Below are positions 9,985 to 62,597 of a stretch of 64,000 nt of DNA, one piece after another. The notes under the pieces were generated by a model that made no database searches, was not told the origin of the DNA, and saw only the letters and a list, made by a program, of their open reading frames with translations. Made by a program: the position numbers and the translations under genes. This DNA is from Mobula hypostoma (lineage: Eukaryota): NCBI RefSeq assembly GCF_963921235.1, contig NC_086108.1, positions 85,872,001-85,936,000 of the forward strand. Direction: 5' to 3'. The number at the start of each line of letters is the position of its first letter. Position 1 is the stretch's first letter.

Positions 9985-12810
9985 GAGTGGTCATCATTCG
10001 AGTGGTCTGAGTCAGAGTGGTAAGGCTTTGCCTCAATGGGGCTTTGGCGAGAACAGGCAGGGGTGAGGTAAGTAGGCAAGTTCATTCCTTATTTCTTATT
10101 TCTGCTTTCTTATTTAACTCTTGAGAGAATAGGGAGTTTGTCTACAGAAGCAGTGTTCTGTTCTAGGTGTCAGATATGGAAATTACAGGAGACTACCAGC
10201 CTCCACAATGGCCACATCTGCACCAGGCGCATTGAGATGTAGTTCTGCAGAGACCATGTTTAAGAACTGGAGCTGCAGCTCGATGATCTCCAGCTTGTTA
10301 GGGAAAGTGAAGAGGTAATAGACGGGAACTACAGGGAGGGAATCACCCCAAGGCTACAGAAGACAGGTACTGTAATTGGGTGACTGTCTGGAATGGGAAG
10401 GGAGAACGTCAGATAGTGGAGAGCACTCCTGTGGCCATCCCCTTCATAAACACACCATTTTGAGTACTTTTGGTGAGGGTGGGGTAGAACCTGCCTGGGG
10501 GAAGAAACAGTGGCTGTGCCTCTGTCTCTGAGTCTGGTCCTGTGGCTCAGAATGATAGGGAATTGAAGAGGATAGAAGCAGTAATAGGTGACTCTATAGT
10601 TAGGGGGACAGATAGGCAATTCTCTGGATGAGAAAAAGAAACATGGGTGGTAGTTTGCCTCTCAGGTGCCAGGGTCCTCAAAGTTTCTGAATGTGTCCAC
10701 AATATCCTGAAAATGGAGGGTAAGTAGCCAGAAGTTGTGGTACATATTGGTACCCATGACATAGGTAGAAAAGGGGAGGAGGTCCTGAAAAAAATACAGG
10801 CAGTTAGGAAGGAAGCTGAGAATCAGGATCGCAAGGGTAGTAATCTCGGGATTGCTGCCGGTGCCACACGACAGTGAGGATAGGAATAGAATGAGGTGAC
10901 AGATAAATGCGTGGCTGAAGAATTGGAGCAGGGGGCAGGGATTCAGATTTCTGGATAATTGGGATCTCTTCTGGGGCAGGTGGGACCTGTGCAAAAAGGG
11001 ATGTGTTGCACTTGAATCCGAGGGGGACCAAAATTCTTGTGGACAAGTTTACTAGAGCTGTTGGGAATGGTTTAAACTAATATGGCAGTGGGATGGGAAC
11101 TAGTATGGTAGATCTGAGGATGAGCTAGCAGGCTTACAAGTAGTTGATGAAACCTGTAATATAAATGTAAGGAAGGACAAGCCAATGACTGGGTACAAAT
11201 GCAGACAGAGCAAAGAGTTAAATTGTACCACAGAGGAAAAATTCAAAAGGGCAAGGAATACAGGAGTGAAGGTGCTGTATTTAAATGAGCATAGCATTCA
11301 GAATAAGGCTGACAAACTTGTGGTGCGATTAGAGATTGGTCAGTAAGACATTGTGGGCATCATTGAGTCATGGCTGAAAGAAGGCCATGGGTGAGAGCTG
11401 TACCTCGAAGAATATACTTTGTATCAAAAAGGCAGGCAGGAAATCATAGGCAGTGGTGTGGCTCTCTTGGTAAGAGATGGGATTACATCTTTAGATAGAG
11501 GTGACATGGGGTCAGAGAATGATGAGTCTTTGTGGGTGGAGTTAAGAACCTGCACTGGTAACAAAACAATTATAGGAATCATATATAAGCCTCCAAATAG
11601 TAGGCAAGATGTGGGGTTGAGATTGCAAAGGGAGTTGGAAAGGGCATGTAATAAGGGCAATGACAGAATTGTAATGGGGGACTTCAATATGCAAGGGAAT
11701 TGGGAAAATCAGGTTGGTGTTGGATTACAAGAGAGAGAATTTGTTGAATGCCTATGAGATGGCTTTCTAGAGCAGCTTATGCTTAAGCCTATTTGGGGAA
11801 AGGCAGTCTTAGTTTGAGTGTTGTGTAATAACCCAGATCTTATTAGGAAGCTTAATGTAAAAGAGCCCTTAGAAGGCAGTGATCATAATATGATTGAATT
11901 CATCCTGCAGTTTGGGAAGTTGGATGATTGGGAAGCTTTTAAAATCCACAAAAGGCAACAACAATCCACAACAAAGGTGTAAGAAGGGAAAAGATGAAGT
12001 ATGAGGGCAGAGTAGCCAATAACATAAAGCAGGATACTAATTTTTTTTTCAGTTATATAAAGAGTAAAAAGGTGACAGTTAATATTGGACCACTGGAAAA
12101 TGATGCTGGTGAGATAGTAATGAGAAATAAAGAAATGGAAGATGAACTTTGCATCAGTCTTCAATGTGGAAGACACTAGCAGTGTGCCAGAGGTCTGTGC
12201 AGGTCAGGGAGCAGGAGCGCCATCGCAATGGAAAAAGTTCTAGACAAGCTGAAGGGTCTCGAGGTGGATAAGTCATCTGGGCCATATGGACTACATCCCA
12301 GAGTCCTGAGAGAGGTTGCTGATGAGATAATGAATGCATTGTTCATGATCTTTCAAGAATCACTTGAATCTGGCATACACCCGGAGGACTAGAAGATCGC
12401 CAGTGTCACTCTATTCTTTAAGAAGGGAGGAACGCAAAAGAAAGGAAATCATAGGCCAGTTAGCCTAACCTCAGTGGTTGGGAAAGTGTTGGAGTCTATT
12501 ATTAAGGATGAGATTTTGGGGTACTTGGAGACTAATGATAAAATAAGCCTAAGTCAGCATGGTTTCTGTAAAGGGAAATCTTGCCTGACAAAACTGTTAG
12601 GGTTCTTCGAGGAAGTAACGAGCAGGATGGACAAAAGAGAGGCAGTGGATATCATTTACTTGTTTTTTTCAGGTCTTTGACAAGGTGCCACATATGAGCA
12701 TACTTAACAAGATAAAATCCTATGGCGTAACAGGAAAGATTCTGGCATGGATAGAGGAATGGCTAACAGGCAGGAGGCAGTAAGAGTTTGACTGCCAGTG
12801 ACTAGTGTGC
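9985..12810 (+). mobile_element. CR1 LINE: 5' UTR, ORF1 (CX2C zinc motif + SGNH esterase) and partial ORF2; decayed with internal deletions
   Basis: ORF1 CSRCQIW...HICTR, VIGDSIVRG, VHIGTHD, ending GNGLN*; ORF2 GIIYKPPN, MGDFN, SQHGFCKGKSCLT. Confidence 0.92.
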
Positions 12811-29982: not shown

Positions 29983-32890
29983 ATCATAAGACTATAAGAC
30001 ATAGGAGCAGAATTACGCCATTAAGCCTATCGAGTCTGCTCTGGCATTCAATCATGGCTGAACCTTTTTTTCCTTCCTCAGTTCTACTCCCTAGCCTTCT
30101 CCCTGTAACCTTTGATGTTGTGGCCAATAATGAACATGTTAACCTCTGCCTTGAATACGCCCAATGACCCAATGACCAAATGGCTTGGCCTCCTGTGGTA
30201 ACAAATTCCACAAATTCACCATCCTTTGGCTAAAGAAATTTCTCCACTTCTCCGTTTTAAATGGACGCCCCTCTATCCTGAGGCTGTGTTCTCTTGTCCT
30301 AGACTCCCCCACCATGGGAAGCATCCTTTCCACATCTATTCTGTCTTGACCTTTCAACATTCGAAAAGTTTCAATGAGATCCCCCCTCATCCTTCTAAAT
30401 TCCAGTAAGTACAGGCTCAGAGCCATCAGGTGCTCCTCATATGATAACCCTTTCATTCCCAGAATCATCCTTGAGAACCTCCTCTGAACCCTCTCCAAGG
30501 CCAGCACATCTTTTATCAGATAAGGAGCCCAAAACCATTCACAATACTCAAGGTGAAGCCTCACCAGTGCCTTATACCCCTGCTCATATTCTAGATCTCT
30601 TGAAATGAATGCTAACCTTGCATTTGCCTTCCTCACCACTGCCTTAACCCTAGAATCAGGATCAGAATCAGGTTTATTATCACTGACATGGGTCATGAAA
30701 TTTGTTAACTCAGCAGCAGCAGTTCAATGCTATACATAATATAGAAGAAGAAAAAAAAGATAAAAATAATAATAAATAAATAACTCAATTACAGAATATG
30801 TATAATGAATAGATTAAAATTGTGCAAAGCAGAAATAATATATATTTAAAAAGTGAGGTTGTGTTCATGGGACTAATGTCCCTTTAGGAATTGGATGCAG
30901 AGGGAACGAAGCTGTTTTTGAGTCGCCGAGTGTGTGCCTTCACGCTTCTGTACCTCCTACCTGATGGTAACAGTGAGGAAAGAGCATGCCCTGCAAGCTA
31001 ACCTTTAGGGTGTTCTGCACAAGGACTCCCAAGCCCCATTGCATCTCAGATTTTTGGATTTTTCTCCCCGTTTAGAAAATAGTCTGCACATTTATTTCTT
31101 CTATCAAAGAACATGACTTTGCATTTTCCAACATTGTATTTTATTTATCACTTTCTTACCCACTCTCCTAATCTGTCTAAGTATTTCTGCAGCCTTCCTG
31201 CTTCATCAACAGTACCTGCCCCTCAACCAATCTTCATATCATCTGAAAACATTGCAAAAAAGCCATCTATTCCATCATCTAACTCATTGATATACAGCAT
31301 AACAAGTAGTGGTCCATACACCGACCCCTGCAGAAAACCACTGGTCATTGGCAGCTAATCAGAAAAGGATCCTTTTATTCTCACTCATCTCTCCTACCAA
31401 TCAGCCAATACTCTAACCATGCCAGTATCTTTCCTGTAATATCATGGTAAGCAGCCTCATGTGTGGTACCCTGTCAAAGGCCTTCTGAAAGTCCCATATA
31501 TAGAACATCCACAGAATCCCCTTTATCTATCCTAATTGTAATCTCTTCAAAGAATTCCAGCAGGTTCATCAGGCAAGCTTTTCACTTAAGGAAACAATGC
31601 TGACTTTGTCCTATCTTGTCCTGTGTCACCAAGTACTCCATAACATTAACAAATGACTCCAACATCTTCCCAACCATGGAGGTCAGGCTAACTGGTCTAT
31701 GATTTCCTTTCTGCTGCCTCCCTCCTTTCTTAAAGAGTGGAGTGACATTTGCAATTTTCCAGTCCTCCGGAACCATGCCGGTGTCCAATGATTTTTGAAA
31801 GATCATTGCTAATGCCAAATTTCAAGTTGAACTCAATCATATTGTGATCACTGGCTCCTAAGGGTTCCTTTACTTTAAGCTCCCTAATCATCTCCAGTTC
31901 AAAATTACATAACACCTCATCCAGTATAGCTGATCACATAGTAGTCTCAATGACAAACTGCCCTGAAAAGCCACCTCAGAGGCATTCAACAAATTCATTC
32001 TCTTGGGATCCATTACCAATCCAATTTTCTCAATATACCTGCATGTTAAAATCTGCCATGACTATAATAACACAGTCCTTTTGACACATAGTTGCTATTT
32101 CCTTTTATAATCTGTAGTCCACATCCCAGCTACTGTTTGGAGGCCTGTATATAACTTCCATCAGGGTCCTTTTATACTGCAGTTTATTAACCTACAAGGA
32201 TTCAACATCTTCCAATTCTATGTCACATCTTTCTAATGATTTGATGCCATTCTTTATCAGTGGAGCCACACTAACCACCTTCCCCCCACTCCACACCTAC
32301 CTTCCTAACCCTCCAATATAATGTGTAACCTCAGCTCCCAACTACAACCACCCTTCAGGCACAATTCAGTGATGGCTACAACGCCATACCTGGCAATCTG
32401 TAAAAATGCAACAAGATCATCTACCTTATTTCTTATACTCCACCCATTAAGCTACAACACTTTGAGTACTGTATTTGCTACACTTACTGTTTCTGCATCC
32501 CTAATGCACTGATACTCACCCTGCTGGCTGCAATTTTGTCCTATCATCTGCCTGCCCTTCCTGACAGTCTGACTGCACACAATCTTTGTATTTGTTTACC
32601 ATCCGTCCTCCCCTGAATCCCTTCACTCGGTTTCCCATCCCCTTGCCAAATTAGTTTAAACCATCCCCAACAGCTCTAGCAAACCTGCCTGCTAGAATAT
32701 TGGTCCCTCTCAGGTTCAGGTGCAACCTGTATAAGTCATGCCTCCCCCAGAAGAGATCCCAGTGATCCAAGAACCTGAAGCCCTGCCCTCTGCACCAGCT
32801 TCTCAGCCGTGCATTTATCTGCCTCTTCATCCTGTTTCTACCCTCACTGGTGCATGGCACAAGTAGCAATCCAGAAATTACTACCCCAGA
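29983..32890 (-). mobile_element. CR1 LINE (ORF1 end plus deleted ORF2 to 3' tail), with a Rex1 3' end inserted at ~30651-30995
   Basis: ORF1 end RFLDHWDLFWGR..LHLN..FARAVGDGLN*; PEDWKIANVTPLFKKG; LVRLHLEYC. Confidence 0.92.
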
Positions 32891-46550: not shown

Positions 46551-48747
46551 GGTTCTGCAGGTGAGAACAAAATTCCCAGATGGCATGTTGCCTCCCAGTC
46601 CTCAGCATTTATAAGTGGGAGGGTGAACAGCCAGAAGTCGAGGTCCAGGTAGGTAACAATGACATGGGTCAGACGAGTGACGAGGTTCTGCATAAGGAGT
46701 TCAAAGAGTTAGATGCTAAGTTAAAGGGCAGGACCTCCAGTGTTGTGATCTCAGGATTGCTACTCATGTCAATAGATATTGATGCCAGAACTAGGAAGAT
46801 TATACAGTTTAATATGTGACTAAAGAGTTGGTGCAGGAGGAAGAGCATAAGATTTTTGGATTATTGGGCTCTCTTCCAGGGAAGGTGGGACCTGTGCAGA
46901 AGGGGTGGTTTGCACCTGAACTGGAGAAAGACTGATATCCTAGTGGGAAGGTTTGTTAATGCTTCGCCGTGGGGTTTAAACTAGAGTTGCAGCGGATGGG
47001 GACCAGAATGCCAGAACAGTTACTGGAGAGGTTGTGGAGGCAGATGTTGGTAAGACCTCAGACAAAGTTAGGAATCAAAAGGTTGAGCATGGTGCATCTA
47101 GTGTCCTGTGCTGTCTATACTTCAATGCAAGAAATATCATAGGAAAGGCTGATAATAGTGATCAAGATGAGATAGCTGGTTTTCAAACAAAAGCAATGTG
47201 TAGTGAAGAGATAGGACAAAATTGCAATGAACAGGATGAGTTGCAACATAAAAGGTGGACAAAATCTAAAAGGGTCAGAGAGGACTGAAGGTGTTGTATC
47301 TGAATGCATGCAGCATATGGAATCAGGTGGATGAACTTGCAGCACAGTTACAGATTGGCAGGTATGATGTTGTAGGCATCACTGAATCATGGCTGAAAGA
47401 TTATAGCTGGGAGCTTAATGTCCAACGATACACGTTGTATCAAAATGACAGGCAGGAAGGCGGTGGAGAGGGGCGGCATTGCTGTGTTGATAAAAAAAAT
47501 GAAACCCAATCATTAGAAAGAGGTGACATAGGGTCGGAAGCTGTTGAATCATTGTGGATAGAACTAAGGAAATGCAAGGGTAAAATGACCCTGATGGGAG
47601 TTGTATATAGACCCCCAAATAGTAGTAAGGATGTGGCCTACAAATTACAATGGGAAATAGAAAATGCATGTCAAAAGGGCAATGTTACAATAGTCCTGGG
47701 CTCTTCAATATGCAGGTACACTGGGAGAATCAGGTTGGTACTAGATTACAGGAGGGGAGGTTTCTAGAGTGCCTATTAAATGGCCTTTTAGATCAGCACG
47801 TGGCTGAGCCCACTAGAGGATTGGGTGTTGTGCAATGAACCAGAATTGATTAGAGAGCACGAGGTAAAAGAACCTTTAGGGGCAAGTAATCATAATATGA
47901 TCAAATTCACCTTGAAATTGGAGAAGAAGAAGTAAATGTCAGGTTTGAAAGGCACAGGATATATATATCCCAAAGAGGAAGAGGTATTCTAAAGGAAAGA
48001 TGACACAACTGTGACCAACAAGAGAAATCAAACCCAACATAAAATCCAAAGAGAGGGTATATAAAAGAGCAAGAATAATTGTGAAGTTAGAGGATTGGGA
48101 AGCTTTTAAATCCAAAAGAAGACAACTAAAAGTATAATAAGAAGGTAAAGATGGAAAACAAAATTAAGCTAGCCAATAATATTAAAGAAGATACCAGAAG
48201 TTTCTTCAGATAAATAAAGTGTAAAAGAGAGGCGAGAATGGATATCAGACCGCTGGAAAACAATTCTGGAGAGGTAGTAATGGGGGTCAAGGAAATGGCA
48301 GATGAACTGAATAAGTATTTTGCATCAGTCTACACTGTGGAAGACACTAGCAGTATGGTGGAAGTTCCAGGTGTCAGGGGTATGAAGTGTGTGAAGATTT
48401 TATAATCAGATAATAACCAGATAGAAGGTTCTTGGGAAACTGCAAGGTCTGAAGGTAAATCAGTCATCTGGACCAGGTGGTGAACACCCCAGACTTCTGA
48501 AAGAGATGGCTGAAGAGATTGTGTTGGCATTAGTAATGATTCTTCAAGAACCACTAGATTCTGGAATGGTTCCAGAAGACTGTAAACTTGCACATGTCAT
48601 TCCACTCATCAAGAAGGGAGAGGAGGTTGAAGAAAGGAAACTATAGGCCAGTTAGTCAGAATTCAATGGTTAGGAGATGTTGGAGTCAATTATTAATTAT
48701 GAGGTCTCAGGGTACTTGGAGGCACATGATAAAATAGGCTGTAGTCT

Positions 48748-59426: not shown

Positions 59427-62400
59427 ATTAGCGGGGGCTACTGAGGTGACTTTAAACTAGAATGGTTGGGGGGTGGGAATCAAATTAAAGAGGCTAGGCG
59501 TGAGGAAGTTAGTTCACAACAGGGGGATGGGAACCAGTGCAGAGAGACAGAGGGGTGTAAAGTGAGGGTAGAAGCAAAAAGTACTAAGGAGAAAAGTAAA
59601 AGTGGCAGGCCGACAAATCCAGGGCAAGCATTAAAAAGGGCCACTTTTCAACATAATTGTATAAGGGCTAAGAGAGTTGTAAAAGAGCGCCTGAAGGCTT
59701 TGTGTTTCAATGCAAGAGGCATTCGTAATAAAGTGGATGAATTGAAAGTGCAGATTGTTATTAATGATTATGATATAGTTGGGATCACAGAGACATGGCT
59801 CCAGGGTGACCAGGGATGGGAGCTCAACGTTCAGGGATATTCAATATTCAGGAGGGATAGACATGAAGGAAGGGGAGGTGGGGTGGCGCTGCTGGTTAAA
59901 GAAGAGATTAACGCAATAGAAAGGAAGGACATAAGCCGGGAAGATGTGGAATCGATATGGGTAGAGCTGCGTAACACTAAGGGGCAGAAGACGCTGGTGG
60001 GAGTTGTGTTCAGGCCACCTAACAGTAGTAGTGAGGTTGGAGATGGTATTAAACAGGGAATTAGAAATGTGTGCAATAAAGGAACAGCAGTTATAATGGG
60101 TGACTTCAATCTACATGTAGATTGGGTGAACCAAATTGGTAAAGGTGCTGAGGAAGAGGATTTCTTGGAATGTATGCGGGATGGTTTTTTGAACCAACAT
60201 GTCGAGGAACCAACTAGAGAGCAGGCTATTCTGGACTGGGTTTTCAGCAATGAGGAAGGGTTAATTAGCGATCTTGTCGTGAGAGGCCCCTTGGGTAAGA
60301 GTGACCATAATATGGTGGAATTCTTCATTAAGATGGAGAGTGACATAGTTAATTCAGAAACAAAGGTTCTGAACTTAAAGAGGGGTAACTTTCAAGGTAT
60401 GAGACGTGAATTAGCTAAGATAGACTGGCAAATAACACTTAAAGGATTGACAGTGGATATGCAATGGCAAGCATTTAAAGGTTGCATGGATGAACTACAA
60501 CAATTGTTCATCCCAGTTTGGCAAAAGAATAAATCAAGGAAGGTAGTGCACCCGTGGCTGACAAGAGAAATTAGGGATAGTATCAATTCCAAAGAAGAAG
60601 CATACAAATTAGCCAGAGAAAGTGGCTCACCTGAGGACTGGGAGAAATTCAGAGTTCAGCAGAGGAGGACAAAGGGCTTAATTAGGAAGGGGAAAAAAGA
60701 TTATGAGATAAAACTGGCAGGGAACATAAAAACGGACTGTAAAAGCTTTTATAGATATGTAAAAAGGAAAAGACTGGTAAAGACAAATGTAGGTCCCCTG
60801 CAGACAGAAAAAGGTGAATTGATTATGGGGAGCAAGGACATGGCAGACCAATTGAATAATTACTTTGGTTCTATCTTCACTAGGGAGGACATAAATAATC
60901 TTCCAGAAATAGTAGGGGACAGAGGGTCCAGTGAGATGGAGGAACTGAGTGAAATACATGTTAGTAGGGAAGTGGTGTTAGGTAAATTGAAGGGATTGAA
61001 GGCAGATAAATCCCCCGGGCCAGATGGTCTGCATCCTAGAGTGCTTAAGGAAGTAGCCCAAGAAATAGTGGATGCATTAGTGATAATTTTTCAAAACTCG
61101 TTAGATTCTGGACTAGTTCCTGAGGATTGGAGGGTGGCTAATGTAACTCCACTTTTTAAAAAAGGAGGGAGAGAGAAACCGGGGAATTATAGACCGGTTA
61201 GCCTAATGTCGGTGGTGGGGAAACTGCTGGAGTCAGTTATCAAGGATGTGATAACAGCACATTTGGAAAGCGGTGAAATGATCGGACAAAGTCAGCATGG
61301 ATTTGTGAAAGGAAAATCATGTCTGACGAATCTCATAGAATTTTTTGAGGATGTAACTAGTAGAGTGGATAGGGGAGAACCAGTGGATGTGGTATATTTG
61401 GATTTTCAAAAGGCTTTTGACAAGATCCCACACAGGAGATTAGTGTGCAAACTTAAAGCACACGGTATTGGGGGTAAGGTATTGGTGTGGGTGGAGAATT
61501 GGTTAGCAGACAGGAAACAAAGAATGGGAATAAACGGGACCTTTTCAGAATGGCAGGCGGTGACTAGTGGGGTACCGCAAGGCTCAGTGCTGGGACCCCA
61601 GTTGTTTGCAATATATATTAATGACTTGGATGAGGGAATTAAATGCAGCATCTCCAAGTTTGTGGATGACACGAAGCTGGGTGGCAGTGTTAGCTGTGAG
61701 GAGGATGCTAAGAGGATGCAGGGTGACTTGGATAGGTTGGGTGAGTGGGCAAATTCATGGCAGATACAATTTAATGTGGATAAATGTGAAGTTATCCACT
61801 TTGGTTGCAAAAATAGGAAAACAGATTATTATCTGAACGGTGGCCGATTAGGAAAAGGGGAGGTGCAACGAGACCTGGGTGTCATTATACACCAGTCATT
61901 GAAAGTGGGCATGCAGGTACAGCAGGCGGTGAAAAAGGCGAATGGTATGCTGGCATTCATAGTGAGAGGATTCGAGTACAGGAGCAGGGAGGTACTACTG
62001 CAGTTGTACAGGGCCTTGGTGAGACCACACCTGGAGTATTGTGTGCAGTTTTGGTCCCCTAATCTGAGGAAAGACATCCTTGCCATAGAGGGAGTACAAA
62101 GAAAGTTCACCAGATTGATTCCTGGGATGGCAGGACTTTCATATGAAGAAAGACTGGATGAACTGGGATTGTACTCGTTGGAATTTAGAAGATTGAGGGG
62201 GGATCTGATTGAAACATATAAGATCCTAAAGGGATTGGACAGGCTAGATGCAGGAAGATTGTTCCCGATGTTGGGGAAGTCCAGAACGAGGGACCACAGT
62301 TTGAGGATAGAGGGGAAGCCTTTTAGGACCGAGATTAGGAAAAACTTCTTCACACAGAGAGTGGTGAATCTGTGGAATTCTCTGCCACAGGAAACAGTTG

Positions 62401-62597
62401 AGGCCAGTTCATTGGCTATATTTAAGAGGGAGTTAGATATGGCCATTGTGGCTACGGGGATCAGGGGGTATGGAGGGAAGGCTGGGGCGGGGTTCTGAGT
62501 TGGATGATCAGCCATGATCATAATAAATGGCGGTGCAGGCTCAAAGGGCCAAATGGCCTACTCCTGCACCTATTTTCTATGTTTCTATGTTTCTATG
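59427..62597 (+). mobile_element. Young 5'-truncated CR1 LINE (last 10 codons of ORF1, full ORF2, 3' UTR, (TTTCTATG)n tail)
   Basis: Clean junctions within an opposite-strand CR1; no TSD, TG microhomology at the tail. Confidence 0.97.
59466..62498 (+). CDS. CR1 ORF2: APE-type endonuclease + non-LTR reverse transcriptase (frame open from 59445; true start unknown)
   Basis: FNARGI, GITETWL, GDFN, ILDWVF, SDHN; NYRPVSL, QHGF, DFQKAFD, GVPQGSVLGP, KFVDD, RDLGV; no stops. Confidence 0.95.
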   Translation: MGGGNQIKEARREEVSSQQGDGNQCRETEGCKVRVEAKSTKEKSKSGRPTNPGQALKRATFQHNCIRAKRVVKERLKALCFNARGIRNKVDELKVQIVINDYDIVGITETWLQGDQGWELNVQGYSIFRRDRHEGRGGGVALLVKEEINAIERKDISREDVESIWVELRNTKGQKTLVGVVFRPPNSSSEVGDGIKQGIRNVCNKGTAVIMGDFNLHVDWVNQIGKGAEEEDFLECMRDGFLNQHVEEPTREQAILDWVFSNEEGLISDLVVRGPLGKSDHNMVEFFIKMESDIVNSETKVLNLKRGNFQGMRRELAKIDWQITLKGLTVDMQWQAFKGCMDELQQLFIPVWQKNKSRKVVHPWLTREIRDSINSKEEAYKLARESGSPEDWEKFRVQQRRTKGLIRKGKKDYEIKLAGNIKTDCKSFYRYVKRKRLVKTNVGPLQTEKGELIMGSKDMADQLNNYFGSIFTREDINNLPEIVGDRGSSEMEELSEIHVSREVVLGKLKGLKADKSPGPDGLHPRVLKEVAQEIVDALVIIFQNSLDSGLVPEDWRVANVTPLFKKGGREKPGNYRPVSLMSVVGKLLESVIKDVITAHLESGEMIGQSQHGFVKGKSCLTNLIEFFEDVTSRVDRGEPVDVVYLDFQKAFDKIPHRRLVCKLKAHGIGGKVLVWVENWLADRKQRMGINGTFSEWQAVTSGVPQGSVLGPQLFAIYINDLDEGIKCSISKFVDDTKLGGSVSCEEDAKRMQGDLDRLGEWANSWQIQFNVDKCEVIHFGCKNRKTDYYLNGGRLGKGEVQRDLGVIIHQSLKVGMQVQQAVKKANGMLAFIVRGFEYRSREVLLQLYRALVRPHLEYCVQFWSPNLRKDILAIEGVQRKFTRLIPGMAGLSYEERLDELGLYSLEFRRLRGDLIETYKILKGLDRLDAGRLFPMLGKSRTRDHSLRIEGKPFRTEIRKNFFTQRVVNLWNSLPQETVEASSLAIFKRELDMAIVATGIRGYGGKAGAGF

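Follow-up and report, generated by a model that had tools for sequence, protein, structure and literature searches.

CR1 elements are the dominant retrotransposons of most non-mammalian vertebrates, and their 3′ end consists of short tandem octamer repeats without poly(A). Papers from 1997 on the chicken and turtle elements reportedly describe closely spaced or overlapping ORFs. According to the available passages of later reports (PMC13343379; PMC3905857), vertebrate CR1 encodes an SGNH esterase in ORF1 and an APE endonuclease together with a reverse transcriptase (RT) in ORF2, shows strong 5′ truncation and ends in the octamer; the anatomy of the element described here is alike. CR1 is described as having two ORFs without a programmed frameshift in the available passages of PMC2734521, PMC11835228, PMC4255032, PMC6609765 and PMC3905857, and those of a 2026 CR1 survey (PMC13343379) contain no treatment of ORF2 translation. 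For LINEs in general, initiation at ORF2 has been called an open question, in a text whose available part does not mention frameshifting (PMC3894237). A frameshifting review puts LINE ORF2 down to unusual initiation and, in its available part, does not include CR1 (PMC5009743). L1 is a two-ORF LINE as CR1 is, but it has an inter-ORF spacer and uses unconventional reinitiation (PMC5009743; PMC1965478, both in part). Neither this arrangement nor the stop-start UAAUG of SART1 (PMC3894237, in part) is conserved in CR1, and for Paramecium elements +1 frameshifting or reinitiation is given (PMC5405496, in part).

Frameshifts have been stated for other retroelements. The Dictyostelium elements TRE5-A and TRE3-A are APE-type non-LTR retrotransposons that are stated to need a −1 frameshift for ORF2; they differ from CR1 in clade and host and have no esterase ORF1 (PMC5911963, in part), and the available part of an experimental paper on TRE5-A does not mention a frameshift (PMC3159450). 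In two-ORF Penelope-like elements, some of which carry the same esterase, a frameshift with a pseudoknot may set ORF1 apart; they differ from CR1 in belonging to another retroelement order, in their GIY-YIG endonuclease and in the presence of the pseudoknot (PMC8557442, in part). The preliminary description of the locus studied here had taken frameshifting as typical of retroviruses and LTR elements, with studied LINEs such as L1 using reinitiation; the Dictyostelium elements are precedents among non-LTR retrotransposons.

There is also a likeness to viral sites. The CR1 junction shares with coronavirus 1a/1b and retroviral gag-pol the heptamer U_UUA_AAC, its phase and a polymerase encoded at −1 relative to an upstream protein of higher abundance (PMC5009743, in part). 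It differs from these sites in that a pseudoknot or hairpin 5–9 nt downstream is absent, that the stop codon adjoins the heptamer and that CR1 is a non-LTR retrotransposon in which Pfam shows no protease domain. The arterivirus PRRSV likewise has a short unstructured motif that starts 11 nt 3′ of the slippery site; there it is the C-rich CCCANCUCC, to which nsp1beta and PCBP bind, and −2 shifting occurs, whereas in CR1 it is a G-run that is a candidate for this role (PMC5009743, in part). The CR1 site would be a variant of a known mechanism. In the accessible parts of the literature searched no proposal of CR1 frameshifting was found, and the 1997 CR1 papers may already suggest it.

The window, a stretch of 64,000 nucleotides from Mobula hypostoma, contains a CR1 copy on the plus strand (59427..62597) that is nested in an older minus-strand CR1; its flanks rejoin as minus-strand CR1, which can be read directly from the sequence. 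The copy is 5′-truncated: similarity to sister copies starts at approximately 59427, and the 5′ UTR and the start of ORF1 are missing. What is left of ORF1 are the last 10 codons (LAGATEVTLN) and TAG (59428..59460). As reported in the preliminary description, this remnant ends with ACT TTA AAC TAG (59449-59460), in which the slippery heptamer TTTAAAC in X_XXY_YYZ phase (59451..59457) is directly followed by the stop codon TAG (59458..59460). The same description had placed an esterase ORF1 upstream of the junction, which is true for sister copies but not for the window copy. Its statements about the downstream frame could all be reproduced: the ORF2 frame is open from 59445, lies at −1 relative to ORF1, reads FKLEW and continues for 1017 codons to the stop at 62498. 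The first in-frame ATG (60096-60098) is found in VIMGDFN, approximately 130 residues into the endonuclease and past the N-terminal motifs.

The −1 frame enters an AUG-less linker, which is open from the heptamer to the endonuclease (59457..59705). An out-of-frame AUG opens an 8-codon ORF in the +1 frame (59462..59488) and is unable to start ORF2. The G-run GGGGGG-T-GGG (59468..59477) begins 11 nt 3′ of the heptamer and is a candidate unstructured stimulator. The linker is followed by the APE-type endonuclease domain (59706..60308; PF03372, E 1e-11; residues 88-288) and the reverse transcriptase domain (61167..61820; PF00078, E 1.2e-32; residues 575-792). The RT motif at 61662-61670 is FVDD in the window copy and FADD in sister fragments in the window. 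The element ends with three copies of a terminal octamer, (TTTCTATG)x3 (62574..62597), as is usual for CR1. With an ORF2 containing APE endonuclease and RT and the SGNH esterase ORF1 found in sister copies, the anatomy and the relatives of ORF1 assign the element to the canonical esterase-type CR1 LINEs. Because only 10 ORF1 codons and no promoter are left, the window copy is a dead product that is unable to frameshift itself, and the claim concerns the family.

Near-identical junctions are numerous in the 3.5 Gb genome (97-100% identity, 40 scored of 181 candidates). Sister copies are 97-98% identical to the window copy over the junction. TTTAAAC is present in 29 of 30 fetched copies of the family, and ORF1 is open for at least 317 codons in seven of the 30. 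The complete ORF1 codes for an SGNH esterase of 311 amino acids (Lipase_GDSL_2 in Pfam, E 2.5e-16; sister copy L013:598-1530), the nearest named relatives of which are labelled as ray proteins, with 94% identity to a Mobula protein. In three long sister copies ORF1 is open, ORF2 is open for 663-860 codons and the first Met is located at codon 215 from the heptamer. The window contains further CR1 junctions with heptamer and stop codon: those of two older families, B (46975..46984, plus strand) and C (11071..11080, plus strand), each with TTTAAAC in 24 of 30 copies, and that of a fourth, decayed copy (32651..32660, minus strand). Allowing one mismatch, the 10-mer occurs 7 times in the window against an expectation of 6.2, which is no enrichment, and four of the seven matches are CR1 ORF1 ends (59451+, 46975+, 11071+, 32651-), all with TTTAAAC-TAR. 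The argument is built on the position of the motif, its phase and its conservation.

Conservation was determined with a junction profile built without the last nine ORF1 residues. It yielded 153 distinct junctions, of which 111 were kept and 42, with the first in-frame stop codon away from the expected place, were dropped. Clustering produced 23 groups; five damaged singletons (heptamers TTTAAAC three times, TTTCAAC and TTTAAAT) were dropped and one group was split, resulting in 20 lineages, nine from the Mobula genome and 11 from metagenomes, where they lie on host contigs; several are bird-type by similarity. The lineages are related by descent, and all but one of the 11 from outside are represented by a single copy. 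Two further copies, shifted by an indel in an upstream G-run, were dropped, and of the 41 metagenome loci fetched, those that were damaged or ended before the junction were left unscored.

Among the 111 junctions, ORF1 ends with TTTAAAC in 92 and TTTAAAT in six. The alignment proposed in the preliminary description as a check of synonymous positions turned out in favour of conservation: the modal last codons of ORF1 are TTA in 20/20 lineages and AAC in 20/20. The 14 other conserved degenerate columns all vary, with modal-codon shares of 0.375-0.83, and in the rest of the ORF1 tail TTA accounts for 17 of 169 Leu codons and AAC for 25 of 78 Asn codons. Fourfold sites are close to saturation between the lineage representatives (median identity 0.37; three of them have branch-lengthening indels), and two lineages have the same codon at a rate of 0.34 for Leu and 0.54 for Asn. 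In 19/20 lineages TTA is preceded by T, although the amino acid encoded there differs. The exception is L091 with G_TTA_AAC; G_UU(A) is given as the first triplet of equine arteritis virus (PMC5009743, in part). This variant is found in an intact-looking metagenome element (L091:680-800), in which both frames stay open as far as the contig reaches. A later retrieval of thirty loci, based on a distant query, showed TTTAAAC in 25 of 28 scorable copies. The ORF1 stop codon is TAA in 60, TAG in 50 and TGA in one of the 111 copies, and the lineage mode is always TAG or TAA; TGA is never the mode, though both readings would be Leu in the −1 frame. The junction signal is real and strongly conserved beyond coding needs. 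A role as TTTAAA palindrome or TATA-like element was set aside, since it leaves the phase and the fixed C unexplained, as was transcriptional slippage, for which there is no long homopolymer.

The first endonuclease motif is located 110-323 nt 3′ of the heptamer, and its modal frame is −1 in 15 of 17 scorable lineages; the two others are old indel-rich families, and the cleanest copies (L032, L046, L219) read −1. Upstream, the −1 frame closes within 1-5 codons of the heptamer in most lineages, without an ATG, so the conservation is not due to F-K-L being coded in two frames. The downstream frame is open at −1 without a conserved start codon, and some lineages have non-conserved AUGs in the linker. 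In six lineages the stretch up to the first endonuclease motif is free of Met, and eight have an in-frame Met in the linker before it, in three of them 2 nt after the stop codon. An in-frame ATG not more than 12 codons from the stop codon is present in 5/20 representatives and absent from the window family. A conserved in-frame AUG at or next to the ORF1 stop codon, as in a SART1-type stop-start, was not found in the 20 representatives. Shared variants in the linker of the window family fall into 5 synonymous, 3 non-synonymous and 0 stop changes in the −1 frame versus 1/6/1 in other frames. In two other families they do not favour the −1 frame (5/11/0 and 5/15/0), and a fourth family had too few linker variants. 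Three proteins (P0036, P0056, P0179) are annotated as in-frame fusions of esterase and ORF2 with FKL at the junction; they were set aside as support for a fusion, since each appears to be a single copy carrying an indel.

Downstream of the stop codon a second conserved signal was found. Counted from the stop, G stands at +8 to +12 in 20, 19, 18, 20 and 19 of 20 lineages; the two invariant sites, +8 and +11, are third codon positions of ORF2. The Gly codon at the G-run is GGG in 18/18 cases, whereas the other Gly codons of ORF2 are GGG in 92 of 325. At the level of copies, GGGGG is present exactly at the site in 70/104, and a run of at least four G is found nearby in 90/104. The start of the run 11 nt after the heptamer corresponds to the spacing of the protein-bound PRRSV motif, and a distance of 11-14 nt 3′ of the shift site is given for the protein-stimulated class (PMC5009743, in part). 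The G-run is a putative unstructured frameshift stimulator; it could also have a role in reinitiation.

A folded stimulator was not detected. Single-sequence folds of the 3′ region gave a mean z of 0.07 with 0/20 lineages below −2, and those of the 5′ region a mean z of −0.2 with nothing conserved. Folding of the alignment gave no consensus fold, with 2 pseudoknots seen and 1.6 expected. The likeness to coronavirus 1a/1b drawn in the preliminary description lies in heptamer and phase; a pseudoknot or stem-loop of the coronavirus or retrovirus type 5-9 nt 3′ of the site was not found. In a scan for long-range duplexes of the luteovirus type in 16 elements (seven of them partial), the best duplexes lie at non-homologous places, and an Rfam search matched no family. 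G-quadruplex potential is not conserved either: G4Hunter-like scores are 0.84-1.64, and a two-tier pattern is present in 7/20 lineages and a three-tier pattern in 0/20.

We regard programmed −1 frameshifting as the best reading for full-length family members, and as a probable one. It is supported by the invariant synonymous sites, the phase, the fixed −1 relation, the lack of a conserved AUG and the swaps of the final residue pair described below. A minority of ribosomes would slip back one base on U_UUA_AAC and thus bypass the adjacent stop codon. The tRNAs for Leu and Asn would re-pair from UUA/AAC to UUU/AAA; such tandem slippage skips F and K of FKLEW, and the predicted junction peptide is T-L-N-L-E-W. 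The predicted product is a fusion of ORF1, linker, endonuclease and RT of approximately 1,320 residues (about 311 + 1013). Most ribosomes would stop and release ORF1p, which would result in a high ratio of ORF1p to RT as in gag-pol. Less firmly, the pause may come from the adjacent UAG or UAA and the G-run 11 nt downstream and not from folded RNA. The fusion by −1 slippage that the preliminary description had ascribed to these CR1s is backed for the family by the comparative data (heptamer, phase, no conserved AUG) and does not apply to the window copy.

Several other explanations have to be weighed. As has been proposed for L1, ribosomes could terminate at the ORF1 UAG or UAA and begin again close by in the −1 frame, whether at an AUG, at a near-cognate or at any codon, which would give a free ORF2 protein. 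For L1 ORF2 an AUG-independent initiation is assumed (PMC5009743; PMC1965478, both in part), SART1 uses UAAUG coupling (PMC3894237, in part), and a classical frameshift stimulator was not found here. What keeps termination-reinitiation alive is the codon 2 nt after the stop, which is ATG (3), GTG (2) or TTG (4) in 9/20 representatives; in the remaining 11, including the window family, it is a non-start codon (TGG, TCG, GCG, GCA or another). UGGGA, a TURBS-like motif, is absent upstream in 6/20 and is elsewhere found on Trp codons or at varying places. Moreover, reinitiation leaves the invariant TTA and AAC, the preceding T and the GN/KN/GF/FL swaps unexplained, and we consider it unlikely. Both routes might also be used, with frameshifting ancestral and selected and with additional free ORF2 protein, made by reinitiation or leaky internal initiation, in the lineages with linker AUGs (bird-type and some ray families). 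The eight lineages with an in-frame linker Met still keep the heptamer, which would fit. The positions of this Met differ (codon 4, 7, 18, 22, 28, 29), as expected of chance, close relatives have none (L104 versus L093/L095), and the reading overlaps with frameshifting; as a separate explanation it appears quite improbable.

A spliced or internally started RNA would turn TTTAAAC-TAR and the G-run into splice or promoter signals. TAG is a possible 3′ splice acceptor, and splicing is known to be enhanced by G-runs. However, the AG is not conserved (TAA in 60/111 copies), a polypyrimidine tract is lacking (pyrimidine share 0.28-0.56), and an internal transcript would still be without an AUG in six lineages. 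None of the 12 listed joints in four runs is of the GT..AG type, in contigs that are RNA only by guess; single contigs in the runs X3 and X9, the RNA status of which is likewise a guess, bridge the junction colinearly, which has no bearing on expression. Such an RNA seems very improbable to us. Two joints near the junction, 1222-1592 and 1554-1802, were rejected as introns, as they have no splice ends and look like deleted copies. The remaining explanation treats the motif as incidental, resulting from protein constraint on a C-terminal Leu-Asn of the esterase and from shared ancestry; it could refer to the invariant L and N in the ORF1 alignment and to the relatedness of the lineages in the tree. 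Against this, codon choice is diverse in the other columns with invariant Leu or Asn, the same-codon rates between lineages are low as given above, distant relatives have GN, KN, GF or FL in place of the pair, and ORF2 would still need a translation route; the probability of this explanation is close to nil.

The residue-pair swaps come from the ORF1 proteins themselves. The DGxH motif is present in 80 of 121 ORF1 proteins, and 71 of these 80 end in LN; the LN-ending proteins are labelled as shark, ray, coelacanth, frog, turtle, squamate and bird. More distant proteins were clustered at 50%, and 108 of 150 were scorable, 42 being left out because the motif was missing or the tail atypical. A slippery-encodable final pair was found in 48/108, led by GN, LN, KN, FL and GF, and one residue earlier such a pair is present in 26/108, with a background of 4.4%. 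In a smaller set of distant proteins 15/30 have a slippery-encodable final pair. Such pairs are the translations of the heptamers that are most shifty on mammalian ribosomes (PMC5009743, in part). The swaps fit slippery sites and are suggestive only, as they were read from protein sequences; some of these relatives may derive from Penelope-like elements. Searches of a viral contig collection gave no relative; a genome contig collection gave none either, apart from a weak Prevotella match (E 4e-4) that came up later and was not used.

Taken further, the data could mean that esterase CR1 LINEs of all jawed vertebrates, and esterase-ORF1 retroelements more widely (by swaps between U_UUA_AAC, G_GGA_AAC, A_AAA_AAC and G_GGU_UUU), make RT only as a Gag-Pol-like fusion, and that in vertebrate CR1 the shift occurs without folded RNA, through the adjacent stop codon together with the G-run that starts 11 nt 3′ of the heptamer, which would either be bound by a protein (ORF1p itself or a G-run binder of the host) or form a G-quadruplex. 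This wider reading is tentative, and we hold it to be rather doubtful as a whole. If true, it would be a natural cellular counterpart of protein-stimulated viral frameshifting, and the structure-free G-run would be a new kind of natural −1 stimulator; natural use of G-quadruplexes in frameshifting was not known according to the available part of a 2016 review (PMC5009743). The ten-letter signal is conserved from rays to birds. If CR1 frameshifts, ORF2 annotations that start at the first AUG are wrong, which in the copy described here removes the first 130 residues of the endonuclease. RT would also be delivered fused to the esterase, and ORF1 could not simply be dropped or supplied in trans.

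Further observations concern single copies and records. An abundant contig in run X3 skips 247 nt comprising linker and endonuclease start (L013:1554-1802) and is probably an internally deleted, non-autonomous derivative. A 16-nt deletion in the linker is common to L200 and L201. The protein P0023, labelled as SGNH hydrolase of Pseudomonas aeruginosa, shares 59% identity with the ORF1 of the ray CR1 and has LN at its C terminus; the record is likely contaminated with vertebrate sequence. In family B (window 46975-47330; loci L031-L060) the N-terminal endonuclease motif is duplicated in the linker. Both motif copies lie in the −1 frame in the cleanest members, and L049 and L060 are unduplicated.
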